Assembly: GCA_028285495.1 (NCBI GenBank)
Contig: JANQPB010000038.1
Span: forward strand, 34,161-98,160
Source of the DNA: Acidimicrobiales bacterium
Lineage (GTDB): Bacteria > Actinomycetota > Acidimicrobiia > Acidimicrobiales > SZUA-35
Direction: 5' to 3'
Length of the DNA stretch: 64,000 nt
Positions 11,933 to 34,184 of this stretch are shown piece after piece. The translations under genes and the position numbers were made by a program. Below the pieces are notes generated by a model that had not been told where the DNA came from, searched no databases, and was given only the letters and a program-made list of their open reading frames with translations. The stretch's first letter is position 1. Each line of letters opens with the position of its first letter.

Positions 11933-11961
11933 GCCGAACCGAACCGACCACAGGTGCAACC

Positions 11962-12992: not shown

Positions 12993-13031
12993 CGTTGGCA
13001 CCGGCGTCGATGAGGAGGACCAACAGGGTGG

Positions 13032-14054: not shown

Positions 14055-14135
14055 GGCCGCACTCCGATCAACGACCGAGTGGCTTCGGCGTGTGGTGCTG
14101 GCTGGCTCGAGTGCATTGGCGGATCGCCTTTCGGG

Positions 14136-14678: not shown

Positions 14679-14771
14679 GGGGAGCTTCCTGGTGATTGGT
14701 TGCGGCTGTCGTTTGTCTGAGGACTTGATGCTCGGGGGCGGTGGTATGGGTGGTCTTCACACTCGTGGTCT

Positions 14772-14787
14772 TCTCACCCGGGTGAGT
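14772..14787 (-). promoter_or_regulatory. Palindrome copy a (TCTCACCCGGGTGAGT), candidate LAL operator/promoter
   Basis: 15 of 16 positions palindromic. It lies ~101 nt upstream of the lipoprotein start. In gene orientation it is followed after 21 nt by CCCATACC. Confidence 0.5.
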
Positions 14788-14861
14788 CCCGGCGCCCAGG
14801 GGCGTTCGGCTGGGCTGGGGATGTGCCGGGGGCCGCCCCTGGGCACTGATGTGTCGGCGGA

Positions 14862-15662
14862 TCAGGGGTCGCTGCGGTGGGTGACGACGATGCCGATGAG
14901 CAGGGCGGCTGCGGCGTAGCCGGCGAAGATGAGGGCGCTGGTGGCCGGCGGGAAGGCGGTCGCTTCGTCTTCGTTGATGATGCCGAGCATGCCGTTGCCG
15001 GCGACGAAGGGCAGGAAGCGGGCGTAGCGCTCGTCGATGAAGACGGTGCCGAGACTCTCGACGACCAGCCACCACACCAGCAGCCCGGAGATGGCGGCTG
15101 CGCTGTGGCGGGCGATGAGACCGATCCCGAGACCGAGGAGCCCGGACAGGGTGGCGAACCCGACGGACCAGCCGACCGTGGACGGGATGGTGGAGGTGTC
15201 CCCCATCTCGACTCCACCGATCGTGGCCCCACCGAAGCCGGCGGCCAGGCCAGCCGCTGCGAGGGCCGCAGCGAAGACCGCGACGGTTGCGGTCTTGGCT
15301 GCGATCACGACGTGTCGCCGGGGTTGGGCGGCATAGGTCTGGGGCAGGGTCCGGTGTTCGGCCTCGGTGGTGATCGTCAAGATCCCGGCCACCGCGGCGA
15401 ACACGGCGGTGAAGACGGTCGAGAACGAGAACACGCCGGCCACGGTGACGACCTCGTCGGTGACGAGGGTGGCGACGAGAAAGGCGGCGAGGCCGCCAAC
15501 GAGGACGGTGAGAGCGGCGACGGCCCGGTAGGAGCGGACGGTTGTCAGCTTCACCGTCTCGCTGCGCAGGGCCGCCATGATGCCGGGTCCACGCCCGGTC
15601 GGTGCCCGCTCGGCGGCGGGTTCGGCTGCGTGGTTGAGGGGTGGGGTGGCGAGGGTGGTCAT
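14862..15662 (-). CDS. ABC-2 type transporter permease
   Basis: Six-TM profile typical of ABC-2 permeases, immediately downstream of the ATPase gene. Confidence 0.75.
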   Translation of the reverse strand: MTTLATPPLNHAAEPAAERAPTGRGPGIMAALRSETVKLTTVRSYRAVAALTVLVGGLAAFLVATLVTDEVVTVAGVFSFSTVFTAVFAAVAGILTITTEAEHRTLPQTYAAQPRRHVVIAAKTATVAVFAAALAAAGLAAGFGGATIGGVEMGDTSTIPSTVGWSVGFATLSGLLGLGIGLIARHSAAAISGLLVWWLVVESLGTVFIDERYARFLPFVAGNGMLGIINEDEATAFPPATSALIFAGYAAAALLIGIVVTHRSDP

Positions 15663-15701
15663 GGGATGTCTCTCCGTTCGTGTGCTGAGGACTGTGGGTG
15701 G

Positions 15702-16598
15702 TCAGGTCGAGGCGAACTCGGCTGAGCTGTGGGTCAGGTCGACCAGGACGTCCTCGAGGGAGGCGTGGTGGTCGGTGAGTTCGTCGAGGCGGATCTGGTG
15801 GTCGAGAGCCAGCTGGGCGACGGTCGATCGGTCGGCGCCGGTGACGCTGAGCCGGTCCCGGTCGGTCCGTTCGGAGGCCAGGCCATGTTCGTGGAGGAGC
15901 TGTTCGAACCGGTCGGCGTGCTCGGTTTGGGCCACCACTGCGGTCTCGGCAGCGCCGGCGATGGACTCGATCGGTGCGGCGGCCAGGAGCCGGCCGGCGC
16001 CGATGACGACGATGTCGTCCGCGAACATGGCCAGCTCGCCGATGAGGTGGCTGGACACGAACACGGCCCCGCCCTGGTCGGCGTAGTCGCGTAGGAAGGT
16101 GCGGAGCCAGCGGATGCCGTCGGGGTCGAGCCCGTTTGCCGGCTCGTCCAACATCAGCGTCTCGGGCTCACCGAGCAGGGCGGCGGCCAGGGCCAGGCGC
16201 TGACCCATGCCGAGCGAGAACCCGCCCACCCGCTCATCGGCGGCCGTGGTCAGCCCGACCTGGTCGAGGACGGCGTCGACCCGGCTGGTGGGGATGGCGC
16301 TCGCTGTGGCGAGGGTGCGGAGGTGGTTGCGGGCGCTGCGCCCGGGGTGAGCGGCGGCCTCCAAGGCGACCCCGATGGTGCGGGCCGGATGCGCCAGCGC
16401 CCGGTAGGAGGTGCCGTTGAAGGTGACGGTGCCGGTGTCGGGTCGGGTGAGGCCGACCATCATCCGCATGGTGGTCGACTTGCCCGATCCGTTTGGGCCG
16501 ACGAACCCGGTGACCCGCCCGCTGGTGATGCTGAACGAGAGGTTGTCGACGGCTCGGCGGGAGCCGTAGGTCTTGGTGAGTCCTTCGACGGTGATCAT
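15702..16598 (-). CDS. ABC transporter ATP-binding protein (DrrA/ABC-2 type)
   Basis: ORF 15702..16823 trimmed to the ATG at 16598 (MITVEGLTKTYG). Walker A GPNGSGKST, signature LSLGMGQRL, Walker B LMLDEP. Confidence 0.9.
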   Translation of the reverse strand: MITVEGLTKTYGSRRAVDNLSFSITSGRVTGFVGPNGSGKSTTMRMMVGLTRPDTGTVTFNGTSYRALAHPARTIGVALEAAAHPGRSARNHLRTLATASAIPTSRVDAVLDQVGLTTAADERVGGFSLGMGQRLALAAALLGEPETLMLDEPANGLDPDGIRWLRTFLRDYADQGGAVFVSSHLIGELAMFADDIVVIGAGRLLAAAPIESIAGAAETAVVAQTEHADRFEQLLHEHGLASERTDRDRLSVTGADRSTVAQLALDHQIRLDELTDHHASLEDVLVDLTHSSAEFAST

Positions 16599-17317
16599 CG
16601 GACCACCTCGGCGTTGGCGGTGGTCGGGGTGGGGTTGCGGAACAGGACGACACCGACCCAGGCGAACCAGGCGATGAGGCCGAGGCCGAAGACGATGCCG
16701 ACGTCTTCGAGGCCGGGGATGACGGTGATCAGTCCTGAGATGGCGCTGATGATGCCGAGGGCGTTCAGCGAGCGAGGCAGGGCTTTGGTGGTCCAGGCGG
16801 CCACGCTGACCAGGAGGACCCACATGCCGCCGACGAGCTCGTTACCGCCGCCGAGGCCGTTGGTGACGGCGTCGATGCTGGACCACAACGCCTCGGCCTG
16901 GGCCGGGTCGGTCTCGGCCAGGTCACCGACGGCGGTGATGCCGATGTTGTGGATCATGCCGGTGGCGAACATCAAGCCGGCCCAGATGTAGGCGAACACC
17001 GCCCCGATGTCGGCCAGCTGGGGGCTTGCGTCCCGGAGCCGGTGGTGGAGGGTCCGGGCCAGGGGGATGATGGCCGCCCCGAAGACCAGGAAGATCACGA
17101 GGTACCAGACGAAGAACGTGGCCTCGTTCTCGCCGAGGAAGGCCACCGACTCGGCCGGCGTCGGGTCACCGGAGGTGTAGTCGATCAAGCTGGTGGCGAA
17201 CAGCGCGATCCCGAAGATGAACGTGGCGGCAGCCACCAGCGCGCCGATGGCCCCGGCTTTCGCCCCGCTGGGTTCGTGCCCGGCCGGGCTCTGGGTGGTG
17301 ATGAGTGTGTTGGTCAT
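16595..17317 (-). CDS. Multi-pass membrane protein, DUF4386-like
   Basis: About six hydrophobic helices. ATGA overlaps with both neighbouring genes. Architecture resembles 28645..29367, but the family call is tentative. Confidence 0.6.
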   Translation of the reverse strand: MTNTLITTQSPAGHEPSGAKAGAIGALVAAATFIFGIALFATSLIDYTSGDPTPAESVAFLGENEATFFVWYLVIFLVFGAAIIPLARTLHHRLRDASPQLADIGAVFAYIWAGLMFATGMIHNIGITAVGDLAETDPAQAEALWSSIDAVTNGLGGGNELVGGMWVLLVSVAAWTTKALPRSLNALGIISAISGLITVIPGLEDVGIVFGLGLIAWFAWVGVVLFRNPTPTTANAEVVR

Positions 17318-17568
17318 GGGTCTTGCCTTTCACTGGTTGAGTTGGTGGGTTGATGTGCATCGTGGGGGGTGAGGCTGATGATCTCGGCGGTGACCGAGGT
17401 GAGGTGGGCCAGAACGCCGTGGAGGTGGGCGGGGTCTCGGATGACGCCAGTCAGCCGGGTCCTGCCGGGTTCGGGGTGGTCGACGGCGAAGTCGTCGAGT
17501 AGGGGGCGCAGGATGCGCTCGGTGGCACGGCCTCGGACCACGATCTCGTAGGTGGTTGGCTCGTTCAT
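17314..17568 (-). CDS. Small conserved hypothetical protein (84 aa) heading the exporter operon
   Basis: ORF 17314..17619 trimmed to the ATG at 17568 (MNEPTTYEIVVRGRATERIL). A truncated paralogue with an identical RBS context lies at 27208. Confidence 0.6.
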   Translation of the reverse strand: MNEPTTYEIVVRGRATERILRPLLDDFAVDHPEPGRTRLTGVIRDPAHLHGVLAHLTSVTAEIISLTPHDAHQPTNSTSERQDP

Positions 17569-17618
17569 GGCCTCACCATCCCCGACGACGATGTGAGCCC
17601 ACATCACCACGCCGGCCA

Positions 17619-17634
17619 TCTCACCCGGGTGAGA
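17619..17634 (-). promoter_or_regulatory. Palindrome copy b (TCTCACCCGGGTGAGA), candidate LAL operator in a divergent promoter region
   Basis: Perfect 16-bp palindrome. Its centre is 58.5 nt from the small-protein ATG. It is followed after 21 nt by CTCACATC. Confidence 0.55.
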
Positions 17635-17693
17635 TCGCCGCCCGACGGCACCCGACCCGCCGGGATCGAGACACGCTTTCTAGGCTTCAGGTC

Positions 17694-19898
17694 GTGGATG
17701 GTGAAACGGGGGTCACCTCGGTCGACACGATGACCCTGGTTGGCACGAAACTGACGGCGCCGACGCCACCGGCCCGCCTCGTTCGACGTTCCCGCCTCGA
17801 TGACGCACTGAGCACGGCGGTGCAGGATCCGGCGGTCAGGGTGGTCCTGGTCAGCGCCCCGGCCGGATCGGGCAAGTCGACCCTGGTGGCCGGGTGGTTG
17901 GAGACCACCGGCACCGCAGCGGCGTGGTTGCAGGCCGATGGCGCCGACCACGACCCCGCCCGATTCTGGTCCCATGCCATCGCCGCCGTCGCCCGCCGGC
18001 TACCCGACCTGGAGCCGGCCGTGGCCCCGGCGATCCCCGGGTCTGCCGCCGATGCCCGACCCCTCATCGAGCGGTTGACCAACCACCTCACCACCCAAGC
18101 CGAGCCCGTGGTGTTGGTCATCGACGACTACCACCTGATCGCCAACCCCGACATCGACCACGGCATCGAACAACTCGTCGACCTCGCCCCGCCTTCGTTC
18201 ACGCTCATCGTGTCTTCTCGGCTCGACCCGACCCTGCGGCTCTCCAGACTGCGGGTCCGGGGACACCTCGCCGAGATCCGAGCTGACGACCTCCGGTTCG
18301 AACCCCAGGAAGCAGCAGGCCTGCTCGACCACCGAGGCGCCGCCCCGCTCCCCCATCAGATCGCCGCGCTCTGCGAACGAACAGAAGGATGGGCCGCCGG
18401 CCTCGTCCTGGCCGGGATCTCCCTCGCCGACAGCACCGATGCCGACGCGTTCGTCGCCGCGTTCCAGGGCGACGACCGGCTCGTCGTCGACTACCTGACC
18501 GAGGAGTTCCTGGCCGGTCTCGTGCCCGATGACCGACACCGGCTCCTGCAGACCTCGATCCTCGAGCGGCTCTCCGGGCCTCTCATCGACGCCGTCTGTG
18601 GCACGAACGATGGCGCCGGATGGCTACGTCGGATGGCGGCCGCCAACCAGCTCCTGATCGGCCTCGACCGGACGGGGACCTGGTTCCGCTACCACCACCT
18701 GCTTGCCGACCTCCTGAGGGTCGAGGCCGAGAACTCGATCCAGGCCGAGCTGGCGCAACTTCACCGGCGTGCCGGGGCCTGGCACCGCCACAACGGGACC
18801 GCCCTCGCCGCCGTCGAGCACTACCTTCACAGCGGCGACCACGCCGACGCCGCCGACCTCATCTGGGACGACGCAACCGAGCTGCTCAACAGCGGTCAAC
18901 TCGCCACCCTGCAACGCCAGATAGCCCGCCTCGGACCCCTGGCCGACCAGCATGTCGGCACCGCAACGGTCAACGGCTACCTCGCCCTCTTCACCAGACG
19001 CCTGGGCGACGCCCGCCACTACCTCGACCTGGCCCGCACCCTCGAGCCCAACAAGAACCAGACCCGACTCACCATCGCGCTGGCCGTCTACATCGCCATC
19101 GCCTCCGGCGACGTCGCCCGCGCACTCGAAGAAGCCCAGGCGTCCGAACATCCGACCGAGTCGGCCCAAACGCTGAGCCTGATCTGGGCTCACACCTGGG
19201 GCGGAGACCTCGATGCCGCCGAAGCCCTGCTCCCCGTGGCCGAGCGGCTCGCCGACCAAGAACACAACACGCTCGTCGCCGGCAGCGTCCCGATCTACGA
19301 GGGCATCATCGCCATCGAGAGCGGCCGCACCGCGGACGCCCGCCGGGCCGCCGAGCGGGCCCTCGAGATCGCCGAGGCGAACGGATTGGCCGATAGCACC
19401 AACGTCGCGCTGGCCCACAGCATCATCGGCCTCACCAGCGACGACCCCGCCCAAGCGATTGCAGCCGCGATGAGGGGGGTCGAGCTGGCAGACGAGACAG
19501 CCCTGATCCTCAGTCGCGGCTATGCGCTGGTCTCGGCCGCCGACGTGTTGTCTCGGCTCCAACATCCCGACAGCGACGCGATCCTGGGGCAAGCCCGAAC
19601 GGTCATCGACCGGTGCCCCGACCCCGGCATCATCGGCCAGTACGTCAACCAAGTCGAGGCCCGCCGCGGCACCCTACCCGCTCTGCCCGAGACCCCTGGG
19701 CTGGTGGAACGACTGACCGATCGCGAGCAGGCGGTTCTTCGCTACTTGCCATCGCAACTGACCCAGCGGGACATCGCCAACGAGCTCTACGTGTCGCTCA
19801 ACACCATCCGGACCCACTGCAAGTCGATCTACCGCAAACTCGGCGTCGGCGACCGCAAGACGGCGGTCCAGGCCGCCCGGGACAACGGCCTGCTCTGA
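17694..19898 (+). CDS. LAL/MalT-type LuxR-family regulator (STAND ATPase + TPR-like + C-terminal HTH), copy 1
   Basis: ORF 17556..19898. GTG at 17694 chosen by alignment with paralogue 3 (VDGE.. versus MDGE..). Walker A SAPAGSGKST, Walker B VVLVIDDYH, C-terminal LTDREQAVLRYL...SLNTIRTHCKSIYRKLGV. Confidence 0.9.
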   Translation: MDGETGVTSVDTMTLVGTKLTAPTPPARLVRRSRLDDALSTAVQDPAVRVVLVSAPAGSGKSTLVAGWLETTGTAAAWLQADGADHDPARFWSHAIAAVARRLPDLEPAVAPAIPGSAADARPLIERLTNHLTTQAEPVVLVIDDYHLIANPDIDHGIEQLVDLAPPSFTLIVSSRLDPTLRLSRLRVRGHLAEIRADDLRFEPQEAAGLLDHRGAAPLPHQIAALCERTEGWAAGLVLAGISLADSTDADAFVAAFQGDDRLVVDYLTEEFLAGLVPDDRHRLLQTSILERLSGPLIDAVCGTNDGAGWLRRMAAANQLLIGLDRTGTWFRYHHLLADLLRVEAENSIQAELAQLHRRAGAWHRHNGTALAAVEHYLHSGDHADAADLIWDDATELLNSGQLATLQRQIARLGPLADQHVGTATVNGYLALFTRRLGDARHYLDLARTLEPNKNQTRLTIALAVYIAIASGDVARALEEAQASEHPTESAQTLSLIWAHTWGGDLDAAEALLPVAERLADQEHNTLVAGSVPIYEGIIAIESGRTADARRAAERALEIAEANGLADSTNVALAHSIIGLTSDDPAQAIAAAMRGVELADETALILSRGYALVSAADVLSRLQHPDSDAILGQARTVIDRCPDPGIIGQYVNQVEARRGTLPALPETPGLVERLTDREQAVLRYLPSQLTQRDIANELYVSLNTIRTHCKSIYRKLGVGDRKTAVQAARDNGLL

Positions 19899-20201
19899 CG
19901 GACCTCCCGTGCCGGCAGCTGGCCGGGCTTGCCCAGCGGTCCGGTCCGCACCATCGGTCGACTCATCACTCCGTTCAACCCGAACGCTGGCGCCAACCTC
20001 CAGATGTTCACCCTCATGGGACAACATGACCCCGATCGACCGGGCCGGCGCCAGGTCGACCTTCTGTCCACCCGGTAGGTGGCGGGAACCGTCGAGCGGC
20101 TCGATGAGGCGACCGAGTTGGCAATCCAGCGCCTCACCCCGGTCGGCGACCATACCGTCAGGATCAACCCGGCCGAGCGGCGTGCTCGGGCCGGTTCCAG
20201 G

Positions 20202-22379
20202 TCAGAGGAGGCCGAGGTCTCGGGCGGTTTGGACCGCGGTCTTGCGGTCGGTGACTCCGAGCTTCCGGTAGATCGCTCGGCAGTGGCTCTTGACCGTGTT
20301 GAGCGACACGTAGAGCTCCGAGGCGATGTCACGCTGGGAGAGCTCGCTCGGCAGGAGCCGGAGCACCGCATACTCACGATCGGTGAGCTCCTCGATCAAT
20401 TCGACGATCTTGGGCGCTGCGACGTCGGTCCCGTGGCGGCTCTCGGCTCGGGCCAGGAAGACACCGGTGAACCCAGGATCGGGACAGCGATCGATGACCG
20501 TTCGGGCTTCGGCAAGAAGGCCAGGACCCTCGGGATCGCCCTGGACGCTCAAGACGTCGCCTGCGCTCACCAAGGCGTAGGCCAACATGAGGAACTCTGG
20601 AGCTCGTCGAGCCAGCTCGACTCCTCGGCGGGCCGATCTGGCCGCCTCTGCGGGGTCGGTAGAGGTGCGGGCCACGATGCTGTGGGCCAGTGCAGTTTGC
20701 GGGGCTTCGGTCAGCGAGTAGCGGTCAGCGAGTTCGAGTGCGGTGCGGGCGTGACGCTCGGCCGAGGCGGGGGATCCGTCCTCGAGGTCGGCCGTGGCGA
20801 CCGAGATCGGAGCGATGGTAGCGACGAAGTGGTCAGGCTCAGCGGCCGCCATCTCAAGAGCGAGATCGAGGACGGGCCGAGCGTCGTCGAATCGACCGGC
20901 ACAGACCAGGGCCAGGCCCAGCGCCATGGCTTGGGTCGCCTCGGTCGGCTCCGTCGAGCCTGCCGCGGCGCCGAGCGCGCCAGCGACGTCACCAGCGGCG
21001 ATGTAGGTCATGATCCCGAGTGCGGCGATCAGGCCCTCGTCGGCGCCGTCGATATCGATCTGGTAGGCGGCGCGGTGGCATCGTTTGGCCTCGGCGAAGC
21101 GGCCGGCAATAAGTGCCACCCAGCCACGGACCACCAGGGCACCGACGTGGGTATCGGCCACGTCTCCGAGCCGATCGAGGTGCCCGATCACGGTTCGGAG
21201 CTGACCGCCATTGAGCAGCGCCGTTGCGTGTTCGACGATGAGGTCTGCGGCTGTCGCCCGTTCTCCCGCTGACAGGTAGTGCTCGATGGCATCGTGCATG
21301 CTGCCGTTGAGTCGGTGCCAGTCAGCGGCCGCCCGATGGAGGTCCGCCATTTGGTCGGCGAGTGCCGTCTCAGCCTCGAGCAGAAGAAGATCTCGGAGCA
21401 GATGGTGGTAGCGGTACCACGTCCCCGACCGATCCAGCCCGATGAGAAGCTGGTTGGTGGCAGCGGTCCGGCGGAGCCACGCTCCCCCACCGCCAAGCCC
21501 AGTCACCGCATCGATCAGTGGGCCGGTCAATCGCTCCAGCACCGACGTCGCCAACAGCCGCTGCCGATCCTCATCGGTGACGGTTGCGAGCAGCTCGTCG
21601 CTCAGGTAGTCGACGATCAACTGGTCGTCGCCCCGGAACCCATCAACGAACCCATCGATGCTGCTGGCCGACCGCATCGAGAGCTCGGCGAGAACGAGGC
21701 CGGCCGCCCACCCCTCGGTCCGTTGTACCAGCGCACCGACGATCTCGGCATCGATCGAGGCCGAACTGAGGAGCGGGCCGGCCTCGGCCCGGTCGAACCG
21801 CAGGTCGGCAGCTCTGATCTCGGTCAGCTGACCTCTCACCCGGAGCCGCCCCAACCGGAACGGTGGATCCATCCTGGTCGACAGGACCAGGGTGACCTGT
21901 GGTGGACACAACTCGATCAGCCGTTCCACCTCAGATTGGACCTGGTCGCTGTCGATCACGTGATAGTCATCGATCACGACCACGAGAGGAGTCGTCAGCG
22001 CAGACAGCGCGTTCGCCAGGGCCGCCACCAAACCAGTGCCGTCGGCCGCAGCGCTCGGCACCCGAGGGCCGACGCTTGCCTCGACCTTGGGATCGATACG
22101 CCCGATTGCGGCCACGACGTAGGACCAGAAACGAGCCGAATCGGAGTCGCTGCTCTCGGCCTGGAACCACGCCACGGGCGATGGGCGCTCGGAAAGCCAC
22201 CCAGCGAGCAACGTCGACTTGCCCGCACCAGCCGGGGCGCTGAGCAGCACCATCCGATGACGCTCATCCAGGGCGAGGTCGAGCAACTCGTGCAGTCGTG
22301 GCCGCACCACGAATGGGCCTGGGAGCGTCGGTGGGACCAGTTTGGTCAGCACCAGCTCGCCGGCGTCGGTGTCGGTCAT
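20202..22379 (-). CDS. LAL/MalT-type LuxR-family regulator, copy 2 (more divergent)
   Basis: Walker A SAPAGAGKST, Walker B VVVIDDYH, C-terminal LTDREYAVLRLL...SLNTVKSHCRAIYRKLGV. Confidence 0.9.
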   Translation of the reverse strand: MTDTDAGELVLTKLVPPTLPGPFVVRPRLHELLDLALDERHRMVLLSAPAGAGKSTLLAGWLSERPSPVAWFQAESSDSDSARFWSYVVAAIGRIDPKVEASVGPRVPSAAADGTGLVAALANALSALTTPLVVVIDDYHVIDSDQVQSEVERLIELCPPQVTLVLSTRMDPPFRLGRLRVRGQLTEIRAADLRFDRAEAGPLLSSASIDAEIVGALVQRTEGWAAGLVLAELSMRSASSIDGFVDGFRGDDQLIVDYLSDELLATVTDEDRQRLLATSVLERLTGPLIDAVTGLGGGGAWLRRTAATNQLLIGLDRSGTWYRYHHLLRDLLLLEAETALADQMADLHRAAADWHRLNGSMHDAIEHYLSAGERATAADLIVEHATALLNGGQLRTVIGHLDRLGDVADTHVGALVVRGWVALIAGRFAEAKRCHRAAYQIDIDGADEGLIAALGIMTYIAAGDVAGALGAAAGSTEPTEATQAMALGLALVCAGRFDDARPVLDLALEMAAAEPDHFVATIAPISVATADLEDGSPASAERHARTALELADRYSLTEAPQTALAHSIVARTSTDPAEAARSARRGVELARRAPEFLMLAYALVSAGDVLSVQGDPEGPGLLAEARTVIDRCPDPGFTGVFLARAESRHGTDVAAPKIVELIEELTDREYAVLRLLPSELSQRDIASELYVSLNTVKSHCRAIYRKLGVTDRKTAVQTARDLGLL

Positions 22380-22649
22380 CGCTTCACGTGCCGATAGATC
22401 GATGCCCGGCTCACCCCGACCACCTCAGCGATCGCGGCCACCGTGTCGTCACCGGTATCGAGCATCCTGCGAGCGGTGGCGATCTTGTCCGGCGTCATGA
22501 CGCTCGGCCGACTCGGGCGGCTCATCCAACGCACCAGACGCGTGGTCGGTGAACAACCGGGAACAGCCAGCTACCTCCAGGGCGTCGACTTGCAGCGACG
22601 GATCCTGATCTGCTGCCGAGACCCGCGCATAGCCCAGGAGTTCCCCCAT
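22376..22649 (-). pseudogene. Serine recombinase (resolvase/invertase family) relic with internal deletion and frameshift
   Basis: The N-terminal piece MGELLGYARVSAADQDPSLQVDALEVAGCSRLFTDHASG carries the catalytic-Ser motif. In another frame, 22376..22498 encodes only the C-terminal HTH (MTPDKIATARRMLDTGDDTVAAIAEVVGVSRASIYRHVKR). The ~100-aa catalytic core between them is missing. Confidence 0.7.
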
Positions 22650-22813
22650 CTCCCGCGACACTATCTCAGAGAGGCTCATGGAGAAGGCTCGTGAGACGTT
22701 GACTTCGGACACGAGTTCCGAACACCGACCGGAGGTTCTCCATCACCCCGGGCCCGCTTGTCCCAGAATCGTTCGTTGCGGAGATGCCAGACCGAGGTCC
22801 CCGCCCGTCTCGT

Positions 22814-23380
22814 TCACGTGAGGTGGTCGAGCGTGGTGGCGATGACGGGTTCCAAGATGGAGTGGTCGACGCCGGTGGTGGCCATGACCATGAGTCCTTG
22901 CATGAGGACCAGGATGGTCTCAGCGGCGGTGTCGGGGTCGACGCCTGAGGCTCGCTGGTCGGCCGGGGCTGTGCGGAACGCTCGTTGGAGTTGTTGGCGG
23001 GTGATCTCGAACGCCGCGGCGGTTGCGGTTACGGCGGCGGGGTGTTGGTCGTTGCGTTCACAGGCGGTGTTGACGACGAGGCAGCCGCGTCCCTGGGCGC
23101 TGTCGACGAGGGCGGTGAGGATCAGGTGGAGTCGGTCTCGGAGGGGGAGGTCGAGGTCGAGGGTGTTGTCGACGAAGCGTTGGCCTTGGTCGATGTAGCG
23201 CTGGAGGGCGAGGTCGTAGAGGTTGTCCTTGTTGCCGAACGTGTCGTAGATGGAGCCTCGGTTGATACCGAGGTGGTCGACGAGGTCTTGGACCGAGGTG
23301 GCGGCGTGGCCTTTCGAGCGGAACAGGTCGACGGCTCGGTCGATGGTGGCGTCGACGTCGAACTCTTTGGTGCGGGCCAT
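22814..23380 (-). CDS. TetR-family transcriptional regulator
   Basis: ORF 22814..23614 trimmed to the ATG at 23380 (MARTKEFDVDATIDRAVDLFRSKGHAATSVQDLVDHLGINRGSIYDTFGNK, a TetR HTH). Confidence 0.9.
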   Translation of the reverse strand: MARTKEFDVDATIDRAVDLFRSKGHAATSVQDLVDHLGINRGSIYDTFGNKDNLYDLALQRYIDQGQRFVDNTLDLDLPLRDRLHLILTALVDSAQGRGCLVVNTACERNDQHPAAVTATAAAFEITRQQLQRAFRTAPADQRASGVDPDTAAETILVLMQGLMVMATTGVDHSILEPVIATTLDHLT

Positions 23381-23399
23381 GGTGGGGGTCTCGGTTGGT

Positions 23400-23885
23400 T
23401 CAGTCGGCGTTCGGTCGGCCGGCGAAGTGGGTGATGACGTCGGGCCGGAACAGGAGTCCGATGACGGCGAGCTGGAGGGCGAGGAAGAGGCTGATGGAGC
23501 CGTAGGTGAGGGCTGCGTTGTCGAGGGGGTGGATCCACTGGGTGGCGAGCCCGTGCACGTAGTCGAAGGCGCCGATGGCGTTGTAGCCGATGAGGGCTCC
23601 CCAGACCACGACACCGCGGCGGCTCCAGGCCAGGTAGGCCATGACGGGTACGAGGAGTCCGAGGATGGTGTCGCTGACCCAGGGCGCGAACCAGGCGTCG
23701 GGGCTGGTGCCGTCGAACATCTCCAACGAGGGCAGTCGGAACACGACGGAGAACCGTGTGATCGTGAGCAGCATCAGAACGGTGATCCAGACCAAGGCCC
23801 GGGGTCGTGTCGAGTCTGCCGTCGCCGCAGCGATGGTCGGTCCGGGGGTTGGGGTGAGCGTGGTGTTCGATGTCATGCCCATCAC
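23400..23885 (-). CDS. Hypothetical four-TM membrane protein (upstream gene of the TetR operon)
   Basis: Hydrophobic helices; alternative starts at 23882 and 23876. No family recognised. Confidence 0.55.
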   Translation of the reverse strand: MMGMTSNTTLTPTPGPTIAAATADSTRPRALVWITVLMLLTITRFSVVFRLPSLEMFDGTSPDAWFAPWVSDTILGLLVPVMAYLAWSRRGVVVWGALIGYNAIGAFDYVHGLATQWIHPLDNAALTYGSISLFLALQLAVIGLLFRPDVITHFAGRPNAD

Positions 23886-23898
23886 GCTGGCTTATTTG

Positions 23899-23910
23899 GA
23901 ACGTACGTTC
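23899..23910. promoter_or_regulatory. 12-bp perfect palindrome GAACGTACGTTC, candidate TetR operator
   Basis: It lies in an AT-richer patch (TTATTTGGAACGTACGTTCAAGAAAGG) 14-23 nt upstream of the possible starts of the membrane-protein/TetR operon. Confidence 0.4.
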
Positions 23911-24513
23911 AAGAAAGGTTGGCCCTGCCTCGTTCCCAGAATCGAGTCGCAACACGAAGCCGGTCTGGCTCGACGGCGCCAACGCCCCGGGAAGGCCGGC
24001 CTTCCCAGGCCGCTTGGCAACGGGACCACTCGGGGTCCCGGCGGGCATCCTTGCCTCGACTTCTGCTTGGTTCTCACCTTCGAGGGAAGCCAGACTCCGC
24101 CATCCGGTGATCCCTGCGCAGCGCCGGTGCCGCTACCCAGACGGGAGGTGACTCCCGGCGCCTCGCGTTGATCAGCTCGTCGCTCGTGGCCAGCCGCACT
24201 CGAGGAGCGCAGCGGGCCAAGCCCATCGGCGGCAGGCGGATTGGTCGCAGTGGGCGGCATCGTCGCCATCGTTTGCAGCGGCTCGATACCAGCTCTTGCG
24301 AAACCAACGCGGGCCGCCGGGGTCGGGCACGTACCCGCCTCGTCGCTGGCGACGCCGAGCAACCCGTCGTCATGCGAGCAGTTCCGGCGATATCGCTCTA
24401 CCTGACCACACCTTCATCTCAGCGACCGACAGTGGAACCCGTCTCCCCGCAGTCACTCAACGTGCTCACCAGCCTCTGACCCGCAAGCTCGTTGCAGCAG
24501 TGACTCCCACCTC

Positions 24514-24774
24514 CTACGAGTCGTCGGCGGGTTTGGCGAGGAAGAGGACGAGCCCGTGGACGGCGATACCGAGGCTCCAGCCGATGAGGGCCCAGACGGA
24601 CCACCAGGCCGACCATTGACCGGCGATGCCGGCGGAGAGGTTGACGAAGAGGTTCACGGCGAAGATGACCGTCATCGTCACTGCGAAGACGCCGGCATGG
24701 GCCTGGAAGGCACGAACCTGGCGCGGGTACTCGTTGGTGGTTGGCGTCGAGTTGATCTGATCGTGGGTTGACAT
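24514..24774 (-). CDS. Small 2TM-domain membrane protein (86 aa)
   Basis: ORF 24514..25173 trimmed to the ATG at 24774 (MSTHDQ...). Two helices separated by GQWSAWWSVWALIGW, which is 2TM-domain-like. Confidence 0.6.
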   Translation of the reverse strand: MSTHDQINSTPTTNEYPRQVRAFQAHAGVFAVTMTVIFAVNLFVNLSAGIAGQWSAWWSVWALIGWSLGIAVHGLVLFLAKPADDS

Positions 24775-24824
24775 GAAGCCAGCCTGCCGACGGTCGATGT
24801 GAGGCGTCATCGCTCGCCCGCTCA

Positions 24825-24840
24825 TCTCACCATGGTGAGA
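24825..24840 (-). promoter_or_regulatory. Palindrome copy c (TCTCACCATGGTGAGA)
   Basis: Perfect palindrome. Its centre is 58.5 nt upstream of the 2TM gene ATG. It is followed after 21 nt by CTCACATC in gene orientation. Confidence 0.55.
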
Positions 24841-24887
24841 TCGCGCCGAACCTGGAGGGCTCAGGGGCTCTGACCGGCGATGATCGT

Positions 24888-27092
24888 CTAGAGCAGGTCG
24901 TGATCTCGGGCGGCCTGAACCGCAGACTTGCGGTCGCTCACACCGAGCTTGCGGTAGATGGCCTTGCAGTGGGTCCGCACGGTGTTGAGCGACACGTACA
25001 ACTCGCCGGCGATATCTCGATGGGAGAGTTGCGACGGCAGGTACCGCAACACGGCGTGTTCGCGGTCCGTCAGCTTCTCCACCAAGCCCGGCGAGTCGGG
25101 CGGTGCGGGGAGCGTGCCCTGGCGGGCCTCGACGCGGTGGAGGTACTGGCCGACGATGCCCGGGTCGGGGCACCGATCGAGAATCGTTCGGGCTTGGCGC
25201 AGCAGATCATGGCCGTCGGGGTGGTCATGCCGAGACACGACCTCAGCCGCCGAGGTCAGGGCGTAGGCGCGGGTGAGGGCCATGGCGGTCTCGTCTGCGA
25301 GTGCAGCTCCCCGTCGAGCAGCTGCGACGGACTCGTCGGGTTGGTCGCTGGTCCGGCCGATGATGCTGTGAGCCAGCGCAACGCGGGTGGTGTCGTTCAA
25401 CCCCTCGGCGGCTGCGATGTCGAGCGCCCGTTCTGCGGCTCGTCTGGCATCAGCGGCGCCGCCGGTCTCGAGGGCGATGATGGCCTCGCAGACCGGGACG
25501 CTGGCAGCGACGAGGGTGTTGCCTTGTTGGTCCGCAAGCCGTTCGGCCACCCCCAGCAGGGAAGCCGCCTCGTCGAAGTCGCCGGCCCAGGTCCGAACCC
25601 AGATCAGGCTCAGGGCCTGGGCCGCCTCGGTCGGATGATCCGACGCCCGGGCTTCCTGCAGAGCGGAGCCGACGTCACCGGAAGCCATCGCGATGTAGAC
25701 GGCGAGCGCGATGGTCAGGCGGATCTCGTCGTCGTCAGGTCCGAGCGTGCGGGCCAGGTCGAGAGAGTACTGGGCGTCGGGGAGCCGCCCGGCGAACAAG
25801 GCGAGAAAGCCGCTGACGACCGTGGTGCCGACGTGTTCGTCGGCTAGCGGGCCGAGGCCAGTGATCTGGCGTCGGAGGGTGGCGAGTTGACCGCTGTTGA
25901 GCAGTTCGTTCGCCTCGTCATGGATGAGGTCGGCGGCCTCGTCGTGGTCACCACTGTTCAGGTAGTGCTCGATAGCGTCCATGGCTGAGCCGTGGTCGCG
26001 GTGCCATCCGCCAGCCCGTCGGTGGAGCTCGGCGAGCTCACCCCTGATCGAGTTCTCGGCCTCGACCCGGAGAAGGTCGGCGAGCAGGTGGTGGTAGCGG
26101 AACCAGGTGCCATTCCGGTCGAGGCCGATCAGCAGCTGGTTGGTGGCCGCCAAACGGCGGAGCCATCCGCCGCCATCGGTGATCTCGCACACGGCTTCGA
26201 CGAGGGGCCCGGAGAGGCGCTCCAGGATCGAGGTTCGCAGCAGCCGTTCCCGGTCCTCGGGTGGGAGACCGGCGAGGAACTCCTCGGTGAGGTAGTCGAC
26301 GACGAGGCGGTCATCGCCTTGGAACGCAGCGACGAAGGCGTCAGCATCTTCACTGTCGGCCAAGGACATGCCGGCCAGGACCAGACCGGCCGCCCAGCCC
26401 TCGGTTCGCTCACAGAGCGCGGCGACCTGGTGGGGAAGCGGGGCGGAGCCTTGCCGGCCGAGCAACACCGCAGCTTCGGGAGGTGCGAAGCGGAGATCAT
26501 CGGCCCGGATCTCGAGCAGACGACCACGAACCCGGAGCCTTGAGAGCCGAAGTGACGGGTCGACCCGGGAGCACACGACGAGGGTGAAGGTGGGCGGGGC
26601 CAGGTCGACGAGTCGCTCGATGCCATGGTCGACGTCCTGGTTGGCGATCAGGTGATAGTCGTCGACGACCAACGTGACCGGCTCAGCCCACTGTTCGAGG
26701 TGATTGGCCAGACGCTCGATCAGTGGCCTGGCGTCCGCACCCGACCCTGGGACGGTCGACGCCACGGCACGGTCGAGCCCGGGCAGCTGCCGGCCGAGCG
26801 CGGCGACCGCATGGGTCCAGAAGCGGGCCGGGTCGTGATCGGCGCTGTCAGCTTGCAGCCAGCCGGCAGCGATCTCGGCGGCGTGCAACCAGGCCGCCAC
26901 GAGGGTCGATTTGCCCGAGCCGGCCGGGGCACTCACGACGACCACCCGAACCCCCGGATCGCCGATCCCGGCGCTGAGGGCGTCTTCGAGCCGAGAACGC
27001 CGAACCAGCTGCACTGGCGGTGTCGGGGCGGTCACCTTCGTGCCGACGAGAGTCACCGTGTCAGCCGTGGCCACCCTCACCTCACCATCCAC
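24888..27092 (-). CDS. LAL/MalT-type LuxR-family regulator, copy 3 (close paralogue of copy 1, inverted orientation)
   Basis: I count 67 of 92 N-terminal residues identical to copy 1 by hand alignment. Walker A SAPAGSGKST, C-terminal LTDREHAVLRYL...SLNTVRTHCKAIYRKLGV. Confidence 0.9.
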   Translation of the reverse strand: MDGEVRVATADTVTLVGTKVTAPTPPVQLVRRSRLEDALSAGIGDPGVRVVVVSAPAGSGKSTLVAAWLHAAEIAAGWLQADSADHDPARFWTHAVAALGRQLPGLDRAVASTVPGSGADARPLIERLANHLEQWAEPVTLVVDDYHLIANQDVDHGIERLVDLAPPTFTLVVCSRVDPSLRLSRLRVRGRLLEIRADDLRFAPPEAAVLLGRQGSAPLPHQVAALCERTEGWAAGLVLAGMSLADSEDADAFVAAFQGDDRLVVDYLTEEFLAGLPPEDRERLLRTSILERLSGPLVEAVCEITDGGGWLRRLAATNQLLIGLDRNGTWFRYHHLLADLLRVEAENSIRGELAELHRRAGGWHRDHGSAMDAIEHYLNSGDHDEAADLIHDEANELLNSGQLATLRRQITGLGPLADEHVGTTVVSGFLALFAGRLPDAQYSLDLARTLGPDDDEIRLTIALAVYIAMASGDVGSALQEARASDHPTEAAQALSLIWVRTWAGDFDEAASLLGVAERLADQQGNTLVAASVPVCEAIIALETGGAADARRAAERALDIAAAEGLNDTTRVALAHSIIGRTSDQPDESVAAARRGAALADETAMALTRAYALTSAAEVVSRHDHPDGHDLLRQARTILDRCPDPGIVGQYLHRVEARQGTLPAPPDSPGLVEKLTDREHAVLRYLPSQLSHRDIAGELYVSLNTVRTHCKAIYRKLGVSDRKSAVQAARDHDLL

Positions 27093-27142
27093 CCGTCTGA
27101 TCCTAGGAGCGGCAGCCGTGGCCGGGCCGAACCAGACCCGTG

Positions 27143-27158
27143 TCTCACCATGGTGAGA
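27143..27158 (+). promoter_or_regulatory. Palindrome copy d (TCTCACCATGGTGAGA) in a divergent promoter region
   Basis: Perfect palindrome. Its centre is 57.5 nt from the ATG at 27208. It is followed after 20 nt by CTCACATC and by the same GGGGATGGTGAGGCC-ATG RBS context as copy b. Confidence 0.55.
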
Positions 27159-27207
27159 TCGGCCGGTTGTGAGGCCGACTCACATCACCAGCGGGGATGG
27201 TGAGGCC

Positions 27208-27342
27208 ATGGACAAGCCCACTACCTACGAGATCGCGATTTCGGGTCGGGCCACCGAACGCCTGCTCGGCCGGCTGACGGACGACTTCGTGGTCGATCGG
27301 CCGGCCCTGCCCCCAGGCCGTGACCGCCGGAGGTGTCCATGA
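27208..27342 (+). pseudogene. Truncated paralogue (44 codons) of the 84-aa small protein
   Basis: MDKPTTYEIAISGRATERLLGRLTDDFVVDRP aligns with MNEPTTYEIVVRGRATERILRPLLDDFAVDHP. It then diverges and stops, overlapping the next gene start. Too short to appear in the ORF track. Confidence 0.5.
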
Positions 27343-28346
27343 CCAACGTCGACGCAACCACCAACCACACTCCACCTTCAGCCGCCACCAGGGAGATTCC
27401 AATGTCATCACCAACCAACGCCGCTGGCTACAGGGCAACTCGCATCACGGACACCGTTCGGCAGCGACCAATCCACCTCGACTACTGGTACCCGGCTGCA
27501 CCGGGCAACCGGGAGACGACCATCGACTATCACTTCGGTGTCGGCGCCGTCGCCCACGAGGCGCCGCTCGCCGCCGGACCTCACCCTCTGGTCATGCTCT
27601 CCCACGGATCGATGGGCTCCGCCTCCAACTACTCGTGGATCGCCGAACACCTGGCCCGGTCGGGCTTCGTCGTCGCCGGCGTCTCCCACTACGGCGAGTC
27701 GCCCGTCTACGGGGCCGAGACGCTCGACTTCGCGGCCGCAACGCGTCTCTGGGAGCGCCCACTCGACGTGACCCGAGCGCTCGACCACACCATCGCCGAA
27801 CCCTTCTTCGCCAGCTCGCTCTCGGGTCGCGTCGGCATCATCGGACACTCAGCCGGCGGTGCCACCGCAATCGCCATCGCGGGGGCCCCATTCACCCAGG
27901 CGGCTGTCGAAGCCTACTGTGCCAGCCCAGCGGCGGAGGGCGACCTCGGCTGCGCCTATGAAGGCGACGACGCCGACAACACCCAACCGACCCAGGCCGA
28001 CCCCCGCATCGATGCCGCCGTCGCCCTCGATCCTGCGCTCGGGCCTGGTTTCTCACCCAGCGCACTCGCCTCCATCGACGTGCCCGCCCTCGTCATCGGA
28101 GCCACCCGGAACGACTTCCTGCCCCACCACGCCCACGCAGGCCATTACACCGCCCACATCCCAGGCGCACAGTCTGTCGAGCTCTCCGATGGGGAAGGTC
28201 ACTTCGTCTTTCTCGACACCACCGACCTCGCTTTCGACGTCATGGGCATCGGTCTCGGTGAGGACCGCCCCGGTATCGACCGGCGCGCCGTCCACGACCG
28301 ACTCAAGCCGGTCATCGCCGACTTCTTCAACGGTGCGCTCGGCTAG
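27333..28346 (+). CDS. Alpha/beta hydrolase (dienelactone hydrolase / PAF-acetylhydrolase-like)
   Basis: Nucleophile elbow GHSAGGATA, VMLSHGSMGS oxyanion region and a late His (GEGHFVFLD). Start uncertain (27333, 27339 or 27402). Confidence 0.75.
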   Translation: MSMTNVDATTNHTPPSAATREIPMSSPTNAAGYRATRITDTVRQRPIHLDYWYPAAPGNRETTIDYHFGVGAVAHEAPLAAGPHPLVMLSHGSMGSASNYSWIAEHLARSGFVVAGVSHYGESPVYGAETLDFAAATRLWERPLDVTRALDHTIAEPFFASSLSGRVGIIGHSAGGATAIAIAGAPFTQAAVEAYCASPAAEGDLGCAYEGDDADNTQPTQADPRIDAAVALDPALGPGFSPSALASIDVPALVIGATRNDFLPHHAHAGHYTAHIPGAQSVELSDGEGHFVFLDTTDLAFDVMGIGLGEDRPGIDRRAVHDRLKPVIADFFNGALG

Positions 28347-28546
28347 ATCGCTCGCTCTCCACGAGGGCGCAGCACCTGGTACGCATCCCGGGCGACCCCA
28401 TCCCGGCCAATGACGTAGCCCCTGACCGGCCCGCGAGAAGGCGGTCGGTTCCGCTGACCAAGGCCGTGTCGGGCCGCTCCTGAAGACGATCCAGGTCTGG
28501 AGAGCACAGGGCGTGTCGGTCCTTCGAGTACATGACGTCGGTCCCA

Positions 28547-28562
28547 TCTCACCCGGGTGAGA
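28547..28562 (+). promoter_or_regulatory. Palindrome copy e (TCTCACCCGGGTGAGA)
   Basis: Perfect palindrome ~90 nt upstream of the DUF4386 gene ATG. It is followed after 21 nt by CTCATACC. Confidence 0.55.
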
Positions 28563-28644
28563 TCAGCCGTCGTGCGAGGCCGTCTCATACCGGCCGGCAA
28601 GACCGTATGGGTTCACCGCTTCACCGATTCCTACCGGAGGAACA

Positions 28645-29367
28645 ATGACCACCACATCGCTCACCGCAAACCCACGAACCCCCGCCACTCCCCCACCCAA
28701 CCGCCAGAGGTCCGACCGCGCCACGGCCGGGCCCTCGGCCCTGGTCGCTGGGCTGGCCCTGTTGGCCATGACCGTGATCGGCGTGTTCGCGAACTTCGTC
28801 GCCATCGGTGGCCTGGTCACCGATGGCGACGCCGCCGCCACGGCGGCCGACATCGCCGGGTCGCAGACGCTGTTCCGGGTCGGGATTCTGGGCCAGGCCG
28901 CCGTGGCCGTGCTCGATCTCGTCGTCGCTTGGGCCCTGTTCAGTGCCTTCCGCTCGACCCATGACGGCCTGGCTCGGTTCTCGGCCTGGGTACGAGCCAT
29001 CTACGCTGGGATCCTCGTCGTCGCCGTCACCCATCTCCAGGCGGCCGTCCGCCATCTCGACGACGGCGACGTCCTGGCTCGCATCGACGCCTACAACGAC
29101 ACCTGGGCCCTCGGCCTCGGTGTCTTCGGCATCCACCTCATCGTCCTGGGCTGGCTGGTGTGGCGAACCCCCTGGCTCCCACGGGCCTTGGGTGCCCTCG
29201 TGGCCCTGGCCGGGTTCGGCTACGTTGCCGACACCGTCGGCACCGTGCTGTCGGCCGACGACGACACCAACATCGCCGCCTTCACCTTCTTCGGCGAGCC
29301 CCTGCTGATGATCTGGCTCATCGTCCTGGGCTGGAAGGCCACCCGCGCCCCAGTCGCCAACCAGTAG
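28645..29367 (+). CDS. DUF4386-family membrane protein
   Basis: GVFANFVAIGGLVTDGDAAATAADIAGSQTLFRVGILGQAAVAVLDLVVAWALF is the characteristic DUF4386 N-terminal region. Multi-pass. RBS GGAGG. Confidence 0.8.
   Translation: MTTTSLTANPRTPATPPPNRQRSDRATAGPSALVAGLALLAMTVIGVFANFVAIGGLVTDGDAAATAADIAGSQTLFRVGILGQAAVAVLDLVVAWALFSAFRSTHDGLARFSAWVRAIYAGILVVAVTHLQAAVRHLDDGDVLARIDAYNDTWALGLGVFGIHLIVLGWLVWRTPWLPRALGALVALAGFGYVADTVGTVLSADDDTNIAAFTFFGEPLLMIWLIVLGWKATRAPVANQ

Positions 29368-34110: not shown

Positions 34111-34184
<74 letters not shown>

Follow-up and report, generated by a model that had tools for sequence, protein, structure and literature searches.

A candidate operator of MalT-like LAL regulators and its four-box promoters in an Acidimicrobiales locus and in related actinobacterial genomes

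Introduction

A stretch of 64,000 nucleotides from an Acidimicrobiales bacterium (assembly GCA_028285495.1, contig JANQPB010000038.1, positions 34161 to 98160), hereafter the window, contains five copies of a 16-bp palindrome, TCTCACC-N2-GGTGAGA, and three genes for MalT-like regulators of the LAL type (LuxR-family regulators that are large and bind ATP), which are signal transduction ATPases with numerous domains (STAND). The locus raises the questions of which protein reads the palindrome, how the promoters behind it are built and whether the arrangement is peculiar to this genome. A first-pass annotation had proposed a self-contained regulon in which a conserved octamer served as the -10 element and the palindrome abutted the -35 position. 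The comparisons reported here point to another promoter design, and the most likely interpretation, derived from sequence, is an undescribed regulon of the familiar MalT/LAL activator type that recurs in dozens of actinobacterial genomes. The palindrome probably serves one clade of MalT-like LAL regulators as their high-affinity operator, with four-box promoters that would be activated through the proximal box.

Five palindromes in the window

The window was searched for TCTCACCNNGGTGAGA with up to two mismatches, and 100 dinucleotide-preserving shuffles served as control. Exactly five matches were found, at 14772, 17619, 24825, 27143 and 28547 (a to e), where the shuffles gave a mean of 0.22 and none of the 100 reached five. 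The same five-copy family was recovered by an independent repeat search (family D6). Four copies are perfect and the one at 14772 has a single mismatch (...GAGT); sites a, b and e have CG in the middle, whereas c and d have AT.

Operator a, 14772-14787, minus strand: ACTCACC-CG-GGTGAGA, one mismatch, facing the lipoprotein-like/hydrolase operon
Operator b, 17619-17634, no strand assigned: perfect copy, TCTCACCCGGGTGAGA, in the gap that separates LAL1 from the divergent 84-aa gene
Operator c, 24825-24840, minus strand: TCTCACC-AT-GGTGAGA, downstream of the LAL3 stop codon and facing the 2TM gene
Operator d, 27143-27158, no strand assigned: TCTCACC-AT-GGTGAGA, between the divergent LAL3 and the truncated small gene
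Operator e, 28547-28562, plus strand: perfect palindrome, facing the second DUF4386 gene

All five copies are intergenic, and each faces a gene, in a gene map built from Pfam matches and open reading frames (ORFs) filtered by G+C content at the third codon position (GC3) in a window of about 69% G+C. Search and gene map thus agree with the first-pass annotation on the number, positions and perfection of the copies, and on its statement that the 64 kb hold no other copy and that none lies in a coding sequence. Each palindrome is followed by an octamer, which reads CTCACATC three times, CTCATACC once and CCCATACC once, and these words have no further copies in the window. Palindrome and octamer are separated by 21 nt, except at d, where the spacer has 20 nt. 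The distance from the centre of the palindrome to the ATG is 58.5 nt for b and c and 57.5 nt for d; octamers, spacers and distances as annotated earlier were all correct on re-measurement.

The sequence GGGGATGGTGAGGCCATG is common to b and d. These two sites are not independent, because both lie in an old inverted segmental duplication (repeats I1/I2/I4) that also produced LAL1 and LAL3, both of which it spans. Two inverted heptamers exactly 2 bp apart (7-2-7) are present at all five window sites and at 31 loci of the regulator clade described below.

Palindrome and regulators across genomes

Three LAL/MalT-type regulator genes lie in the same region as the operators.

LAL1, 17694-19898, plus strand: 734-aa MalT-like STAND regulator, predicted GTG start at 17694 with -10 TAGGCT at 17681-17686 (leaderless)
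LAL2, 20202-22379, minus strand: 725-aa MalT-like regulator, 51% identical to LAL1 and LAL3
LAL3, 24888-27092, minus strand: 734-aa MalT-like regulator, GTG at 27092, -10 TAGGAT at 27100-27105, 74.5% identical to LAL1

Homologues of LAL1 number in the thousands and are found mostly in metagenome-assembled genomes (MAGs) of Acidimicrobiales and Ilumatobacteraceae. In the two nearest loci fetched, the order LAL, palindrome, 84-aa gene and DUF4386 gene is kept, with the palindrome in the same place. A scan of a genome collection by regulator alignment gave at least 80 loci at 32-62% identity, mostly not nearest relatives, and 82 with the nearest two; neither the genome nor the metagenome sample was de-replicated by species, and MAG loci may carry assembly errors. 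The palindrome, with up to two mismatches, is present in 39 of the 82 listed loci, usually 55-130 bp upstream of the regulator start, and the palindrome-positive loci include Acidimicrobiales, cultured Nonomuraea strains and Frankiales MAGs.

The occurrence of the palindrome follows the DNA-binding domain. When the regulators were ranked by the identity of their last 70 residues, the helix-turn-helix (HTH) domain, to LAL1, the palindrome was found with 31 of the 34 that reach at least 64% identity. Two of the three exceptions have 3-mismatch versions together with the full promoter architecture, and the third locus has no upstream sequence. None of the regulators at or below 63% HTH identity, mycobacterial ones included, has the palindrome with up to two mismatches upstream of its start. 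At the border, locus L035 (63.6%) carries a 4-mismatch version with the same architecture, and in a Streptosporangiaceae MAG (L042) a palindrome lies downstream of a regulator with only 55.8% HTH identity. LAL1, LAL2 and LAL3 all fall within the palindrome-associated clade, at 73-81% HTH identity to LAL1. The earlier proposal that the palindrome is an operator tied to the adjacent regulators is thereby strengthened, as the element is conserved beside homologues across many genomes, and the comparative check that had been suggested for it came out in its favour. The term self-contained was overstated, since the window holds what is a local expansion of a module that is conserved and widespread. 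The typical module consists of one regulator and one divergent operon, and the window, with three regulators and five promoters, is an expanded and partly decayed version of it.

A blind test in the reverse direction sampled 121 exact copies of TCTCACCCGGGTGAGA from metagenomes regardless of the genes around them. A LAL1-like or small-protein match was found on the same short contig for 67 of the 121 copies, and within 400 bp, by profile search, for 55.

The operator itself tolerates some change. Its invariant core is the 12-mer TCACCCGGGTGA, and the degenerate operators CCTCACCCGGGTGATT and ATTCACCCGGGTGAAC keep the full downstream architecture (L011 at 5917, L027 at 5935, L035 at 5947). The centre is CG in 42 of the 45 promoters examined outside the window, and LAL3-type orthologues have the non-palindromic form TCTCACC-CT-GGTGAGA (L203 at 9924 and 12241, L204 at 9790). 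The claim of a palindromic centre is therefore valid as a description of the CG and AT copies in the window and fails as a requirement, given the CT/AG centres of the LAL3-type orthologues. Two candidate codes were rejected. A paralogue-specific centre, AT for LAL3 and CG for LAL1, finds no consistent pattern in four LAL3-type orthologues, which have CT/AG or CG, and no recognition-helix residue is diagnostic of the palindrome, as THC(K/R) as well as THS, THT and THA variants all carry it. The literature gave nothing on the palindrome, and for the 12-bp core only two unrelated matches and nothing in a relevant context.

A sister arrangement was seen in several metagenome loci, where the palindrome is flanked by GGGGTGAGGGG boxes (L089, L090, L134 and L178, also L096, L098, L110, L180, L187 and L190). 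Several of these loci have a LAL homologue at a distance of about 3.0 kb. Its flanks hold G-rich, MalT-box-like repeats such as TCTCACCCGGGTGAGAtgGGGTGAGGGG.

Promoter architecture

Footprinting was performed on 44 target-facing flanks anchored on the palindrome and then on 45 promoters from 40 loci outside the window. In the latter only the palindrome, two further elements here called H3 and H4, the -10 element and the start codon are conserved, and the spacer sequences are unconserved. The conserved design, as read from these alignments, is palindrome, N11, GTGA(G/T)G, N4, CTCACNCC, N9, GAnnnT, N6, ATG. Within the palindrome the promoter-proximal half GGTGAGA is kept in 38 of the 45 promoters and the distal half in 28. 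H3 is a hexamer, (G/A)(T/C)GA(G/T)G, found exactly 11 nt downstream of the palindrome, with GA in 45 of 45. H4, CTCAC(C/A)CC, follows 4 nt past H3. After a further 9 nt comes a hexamer whose second base is A and whose sixth is T (A2/T6), for which GATGGT is the commonest form and G the first base in 27 of 34, and the start codon stands exactly 6 nt past it. In 34 of the 45 promoters the start codon is found after nAnnnT-N6, at +65/66 from the palindrome start.

H3 and the A2/T6 hexamer are both present in the window, where they had been missed earlier. H3, here G(T/C)GA(G/T/A)G, lies 11 nt after each palindrome (10 nt at d), and every octamer is followed, at a distance of exactly 9 nt, by an nAnnnT hexamer (GAGCAT, GATGGT, CAGGCT, GATGGT and GACCGT at a to e). 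A weight matrix of H3, H4 and -10 trained on other genomes only returned the five window promoters as its top five matches on both strands of the 64 kb.

Promoter a, 14728-14760, minus strand: H3 GTGAAG 14755-14760, H4 CCCATACC 14743-14750, putative -10 GAGCAT 14728-14733
Promoter b, 17566-17607, minus strand: H3 GTGATG 17602-17607, H4 CTCACATC 17590-17597, -10 GATGGT 17575-17580
Promoter c, minus strand: H3 GCGATG 24808-24813, H4 CTCACATC 24796-24803, -10 CAGGCT 24781-24786, N6, ATG 24774 (predicted leaderless)
Promoter d, plus strand: H3 GTGAGG 27169-27174 (N10), H4 CTCACATC 27179-27186, -10 GATGGT 27196-27201, ATG 27208
Promoter e, plus strand: H3 GCGAGG 28574-28579, H4 CTCATACC 28584-28591, putative -10 GACCGT 28601-28606, leader with GGAGGA

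Each promoter has four half-sites, because H3 repeats the right half-site of the palindrome (GGTGAG) and the octamer the left one (CTCACC). The octamer, whose family consensus is CTCACCCC, had been taken for the -10 region. This assignment had to be abandoned because no hexamer inside it has both A2 and T6 and because it is lost in about a quarter of the orthologous promoters that retain GAnnnT-N6-ATG; by its sequence it is better read as a fourth half-site near -25. The hexamers GATGGT (b), CAGGCT (c) and GATGGT (d) are predicted to be the -10 elements of leaderless mRNAs, and at promoter b the N6 leads to the predicted leaderless +1 at ATG 17568. An internal control comes from the regulator genes that share these intergenic regions. 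In about 33 of 37, TAnnnT precedes the start of the long regulator ORF by 6-8 nt, which matches the leaderless/TANNNT pattern reported in M. tuberculosis (PMC3898074), and the hexamers at b, c and d are therefore read as leaderless -10 elements. Promoters b, c and d as well as the LAL1 and LAL3 genes have an A2/T6 hexamer 6-8 nt before the start and no Shine-Dalgarno (SD) sequence. GAGCAT (a) and GACCGT (e) would be the -10 elements of short-leader mRNAs with good SD sequences; in the probable transcript of promoter a, about 45 nt of leader, including AGGAAG, precede the ATG at 14678.

The context GGGGATGGTGAGGCCATG that b and d share had been interpreted as a ribosome-binding site. The shared sequence stands, and its ribosome-binding role gives way to the -10 of a leaderless promoter. 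Likewise GGGGATGGTGAGG was rejected as a general ribosome-binding site, orthologues carrying non-SD hexamers that keep A2/T6.

Numbered from the probable +1 at the A of the ATG, the palindrome would extend from -66 to -51 with its centre at -58.5, H3 from -40 to -35, and H4, in the opposite orientation, from -29 to -23. With the octamer not the -10 and GATGGT in that role, the palindrome therefore lies near -58.5 and does not abut -35. The class II geometry proposed for the palindrome is not supported, and a class-II-like contact would instead come from the separate GGTGAG half-site at -35. The H3 spacing is invariant in all 45 outside promoters, and the box ends at -35 if the predicted transcription start site (TSS) is correct. 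No -35 hexamer and no sigma-70-type -35/-10 pair was detectable in the region.

The regulators

All three regulators have a Walker A motif (SAPAGSGKST), with AAA_16 matches above cutoff (E = 3.7e-12, 1.5e-8 and 5.7e-11). Their nucleotide-binding oligomerisation module (NOD; NBD-HD-WHD) is homologous to that of MalT (phmmer E = 4.5e-48, residues 15-412, chain 8bob_C), and PF25873 WHD_MalT is annotated on all close homologues in precomputed data. PF00196 GerE is present in all three (45-48 bits, cutoff 23.5). A helical region of about 250 aa separates NOD and HTH in each protein, and tetratricopeptide repeat signals were seen only in LAL2, both below cutoff (TPR_12 27.9 bits against 30.1, TPR_MalT 19.7 bits against 45). 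The three are members of the MalT family and not MalT orthologues, since they score 300-305 bits with the MalT equivalog model NF003420, whose cutoff is 537, and are about 170 residues shorter (725-734 aa against 903 model positions). A reading as a STAND anti-phage defence (Avs-like) system was rejected, as PADLOC gave only weak matches to the HTH segment and the C-terminal domain is a DNA-binding HTH.

The centre of palindrome b lies at -67.5 relative to the LAL1 start and that of d at -58.5 relative to the LAL3 start. Public gene calls start LAL1 later (P0001, 692 aa) than GTG 17694, which contradicts the predicted leaderless start. Directly upstream of LAL2 a serine recombinase remnant (22380-22712, minus strand) has an N-terminal Resolvase domain in an 87-aa ORF, and the 80 nt immediately upstream of the LAL2 start read as a resolvase-type HTH (AIAEVVGVSRASIYRHVK). 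LAL2 may have moved in by recombination.

Proposed mechanism and alternatives

The mechanism that we consider best supported is activation by an oligomerising LAL protein, because the 7-2-7 palindrome fits GerE dimers and the GGTGAG box at -35 fits MalT. A ligand and ATP would drive oligomerisation, and the flexibly tethered HTH domains of the oligomer would fill the boxes, that is, the four copies of the half-site (G)GGTGAG(A/G), complement CTCACC(C), which precede the weak -10 GAnnnT. The 7-2-7 palindrome would be the anchor site, and the proximal box H3 would replace the -35 and recruit RNA polymerase, as MalT does. Transcripts from b, c and d would start leaderless at the A of the ATG, and those from a and e would have short leaders. 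In this scheme activation rather than repression, DNA binding, the TSS positions and ligand dependence are all predicted from sequence features. The regulator genes have good TAnnnT leaderless promoters of their own, whose distance from the palindrome varies, with one class near -58 and another near -30, and autoregulation therefore probably differs between genomes.

Several observations weigh against this mechanism. H4 is lost in about 10 of the 45 outside promoters (L018, L021-L023, L028, L036, L063). Boxes of the same orientation are offset by 17 and 36 bp, distances that do not correspond to full turns of the helix, and the protein geometry on DNA is unexplained. LAL2 has no palindrome upstream, and a palindrome centre near -30 of a regulator's own promoter would mean a repressor site. 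About 45% of the exact metagenome palindromes are not beside a regulator; most of them lie within long ORFs or on contigs of low G+C content, as chance 16-mers would, and some might be hidden regulon members or sites of other binders. The link between regulator and operator is itself drawn from co-localisation and from co-occurrence within the clade.

The palindrome may also be viewed as mainly a repressor or autoregulatory operator, at which the resting regulator or its DNA-binding domain occludes promoters until ligand relieves it. At 8 loci the palindrome centre does lie about 26-35 bp upstream of the regulator's predicted start, overlapping that promoter, and repression from 7-2-7 sites is known in the GerE family (frdA; PMC4549865). 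At target promoters, by contrast, the palindrome keeps a fixed position of -58.5 and so stays clear of the core promoter, the absence of a -35 and the weak -10 with G first (27 of 34) are the signature of activator dependence, and the relatives compared, E. coli and Actinoplanes MalT, are activators (PMC7567727), so that we regard repression as unlikely. The original promoter model, with the octamer as -10, the palindrome abutting -35 in pure class II fashion and b and d having a short leader with GGTGAGG as ribosome-binding site, draws on the high similarity of the octamer at all five window sites and on the partial complementarity of GGTGAGG to the 3' end of 16S rRNA. This end carries the anti-SD sequence, on which such complementarity is based. 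The octamer without an A2/T6 hexamer, its consensus and its absence from the roughly 10 promoters that keep GAnnnT-N6-ATG argue against the model, as do pre-ATG variants (GACCGT, GACGAT, GAGCAT, CAGGGT) that preserve a -10 and destroy any SD, and adjacent regulator genes that are visibly leaderless; we find it very unlikely.

It is highly improbable, in our estimate, that another protein reads the palindrome, either a NarL-type response regulator encoded elsewhere or the 84-aa protein, and that the LAL link is conserved synteny. The idea would be favoured by the small-protein gene, whose linkage to the palindrome is no looser than that of the regulator. Set against it are the small-protein model, which is ferredoxin/ACT-like with no HTH and no significant match in the Protein Data Bank (PDB), the way palindrome presence tracks divergence of the LAL HTH, the resemblance of the half-site to the MalT box, and the lack of any other regulator conserved in these loci. 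Non-regulatory repeats are effectively refuted by the comparative data. Copies resembling repetitive extragenic palindromes or miniature inverted-repeat transposable elements, or leftovers of the LAL1/LAL3 segmental duplication, might have been suspected from the position of b and d in the inverted duplication and from the resolvase remnant in the cluster; yet a, c and e lie outside the duplication, all five copies are promoter-proximal with no further copies in the 64 kb, and the position and spacing of the motif to start codons are held across genomes whose regulators are 43-60% identical, with unconserved spacers on either side.

Comparison with characterised systems

The closest experimentally studied analogue, as judged by comparison, appears to be the MalT region of Actinoplanes sp. 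SE50/110, where a MalT-like regulator (ACSP50_3915) activates 17 promoters of a local, maltose-regulated region of 51 genes (PMC7567727). Shared features are an actinobacterial MalT-like LAL in a local cluster of poorly annotated genes with a second MalT-like paralogue, a half-site palindrome at many promoters of the cluster with a motif conserved in related genomes, and a promoter-proximal half-site that ends about 35 nt from the TSS, which is a predicted TSS in the window; in Actinoplanes the 3' end of the palindrome of MalT-box half-sites is 34.4 nt from the mapped TSS (PMC7567727). The Actinoplanes operator, TCATCC-N5-GGATGA, is a single 6-5-6 element overlapping -35, whereas the window has a 7-2-7 TCTCACC-N2-GGTGAGA at -58.5 and two separate half-sites flanking -35. 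Gene content and the leaderless design also differ, and activation in the window is a prediction.

In E. coli the MalT boxes GGGGA(T/G)GAGG (core GGA(T/G)GA) overlap -35 (PMC7567727). The homologous NOD, the WHD_MalT and GerE domains, several asymmetric boxes per promoter and a proximal box in place of -35 are common to both systems, and the E. coli box and the window half-site (G)GGTGAG(A/G) have a G-run and TGAG(G) in common, being one base or an indel apart. Differences are that the window LALs are about 170 aa shorter, have a barely detectable TPR_MalT sensor and are not accompanied by maltose genes, and that the E. coli boxes are reported as repeats in the same orientation, whereas the upstream pair in the window is an inverted 7-2-7 and so not such a repeat.

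GerE-type output domains bind inverted heptamers 2 bp apart as dimers (PMC4549865). NarL/NarP operators have the same 7-2-7 arrangement, with single extra heptamers at some promoters, and differ in the heptamer itself (TACYYMT against TCTCACC) and in the protein, a phosphorylated receiver-domain protein where the window has a STAND ATPase. Streptomyces LAL regulators (SCO6993, SARP-LAL; PMC9628970, PMC5930380) are likewise described as large ATP-binding LuxR-family proteins acting on cluster-local promoters. The clusters they control are antibiotic biosynthetic ones, and the present locus has no biosynthetic genes. The title of the SARP-LAL (Streptomyces antibiotic regulatory protein-LAL) paper names heptameric direct repeats.

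Significance

The mechanism is likely a familiar one, and the interest lies in the wide conservation and in the handle that it gives on two orphan protein families. Since both DUF4386 and the small-protein family fall under a single predicted regulator whose operator is precisely defined, induction conditions become screenable by reporter. The four-box layout also shows how a STAND/LAL oligomer might read DNA, which is testable in cultured Nonomuraea or Ilumatobacter, and with its ligand in hand the promoter might be used for inducible expression in high-GC Actinomycetota. Annotation would benefit as well, because the predicted leaderless starts are missed in database entries, both for the small protein (96-114 aa) and for LAL1 (692 aa).

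One may further speculate that LAL, operator and leaderless small protein form an unrecognised actinobacterial signalling unit. The small protein would be a co-sensor of the STAND regulator or its feedback partner, in the way that MalK, MalY and Aes act on MalT, or else a subunit that regulates DUF4386/ABC-2 membrane proteins; the signal sensed would be a membrane-active or ester-type xenobiotic, and the three paralogues would be three inputs to one promoter code. The small protein would in every case be made first, at times as a fusion with the gene that follows. We regard this idea as speculative and rather unlikely.

Target operons and neighbouring features

The target genes listed in the first-pass annotation were right by Pfam and gene map.

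Operon a, 12774-14678, minus strand: 180-aa lipoprotein-like protein (14136-14678), alpha/beta hydrolase (13032-14054) and probably a 75-aa ORF (Pfam)
75-aa ORF, 12774-13001, minus strand: two transmembrane segments, downstream of the alpha/beta hydrolase
Operon b, first half, within 14862-17568, minus strand: 84-aa protein (17314-17568) and DUF4386 protein (16595-17317) (Pfam, structure model)
Operon b, second half, within 14862-17568, minus strand: ABC ATPase (15702-16598) and ABC-2 permease (14862-15662) (Pfam)
Gene c, 24514-24774 (24514-24813 with promoter), minus strand: 86-aa 2TM-domain protein
Operon d, 27169-28346, plus strand: 44-aa truncated paralogue of the 84-aa protein (27208-27342) and hydrolase (27339-28346)
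Gene e, 28645-29367 (28574-29367 with promoter), plus strand: DUF4386 protein

The 75-aa ORF is probably real and part of operon a, because its homologues lie inside palindrome-driven operons of L018 and L028. The gene order of operon b is conserved in L001, L002 and L204, and the layout of site c, LAL then palindrome then 2TM gene, is also found in L203. The hydrolase of operon d is chlorophyllase/DLH/PETase-like. In L203 the orthologous operon is intact, with an 86-aa protein, DUF4386 and the same hydrolase, from which it follows that DUF4386 and half of the small gene were lost from operon d of the window.

In other genomes as here, the gene next to the operator almost always encodes a small protein of 72-94 aa (TYEIVIRGRAS.RLLRPLLDDF...). 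It is followed by DUF4386, by a Zn-dependent dehydrogenase with small membrane proteins, or by an ABC ATPase, an ABC-2 permease and a DUF4389-like membrane protein (DUF4389 assigned by eye). Other palindrome-driven genes encode beta-lactamase-family hydrolases and 2TM proteins (both by Pfam) and MMPL-like transporters (by eye). These domain names, from which the output is deduced, suggest an envelope or xenobiotic response. No literature on DUF4386 was found in the library searched.

The small protein has no Pfam or NCBIfam model, and its family comprises at least 1,169 cluster representatives at 50% identity. Its predicted structure is beta-beta-beta-alpha-beta and ferredoxin/ACT-like (predicted local distance difference test 80.9), and a search of the PDB gave no match at E <= 1e-3, only generic ferredoxin-like resemblance. 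A role as DNA binder was rejected on this model. In other genomes the small domain is fused in frame to an ABC ATPase, a beta-lactamase-family protein, a CAAX protease or DUF4386 (L003 with DUF4386, L024 with the ABC ATPase, also P0253, P0272, P0285, P0305 and P0351), and some of these fusions may be MAG assembly or stop-codon errors. The fusions are uninformative, and speak against one specific partner, because the small domain is joined to whichever gene follows. Public entries for the small protein are N-terminally extended (96-114 aa; P0121 has 96 aa), which contradicts the predicted leaderless starts.

A search of the window with Rfam found only a tRNA (34111-34184, minus strand) as structured RNA. 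Between the 2TM gene and the gene for a 161-aa membrane protein, about 630 bp (23886-24513) contain no GC3-passing ORF and no Rfam match, so that either non-coding DNA or the remains of a gene could lie there. At about 11950-12675 (plus strand) the translation of a long ORF reads, in its C-terminal part, like a RIC/ScdA-type, hemerythrin-like di-iron protein of iron-sulfur cluster repair.

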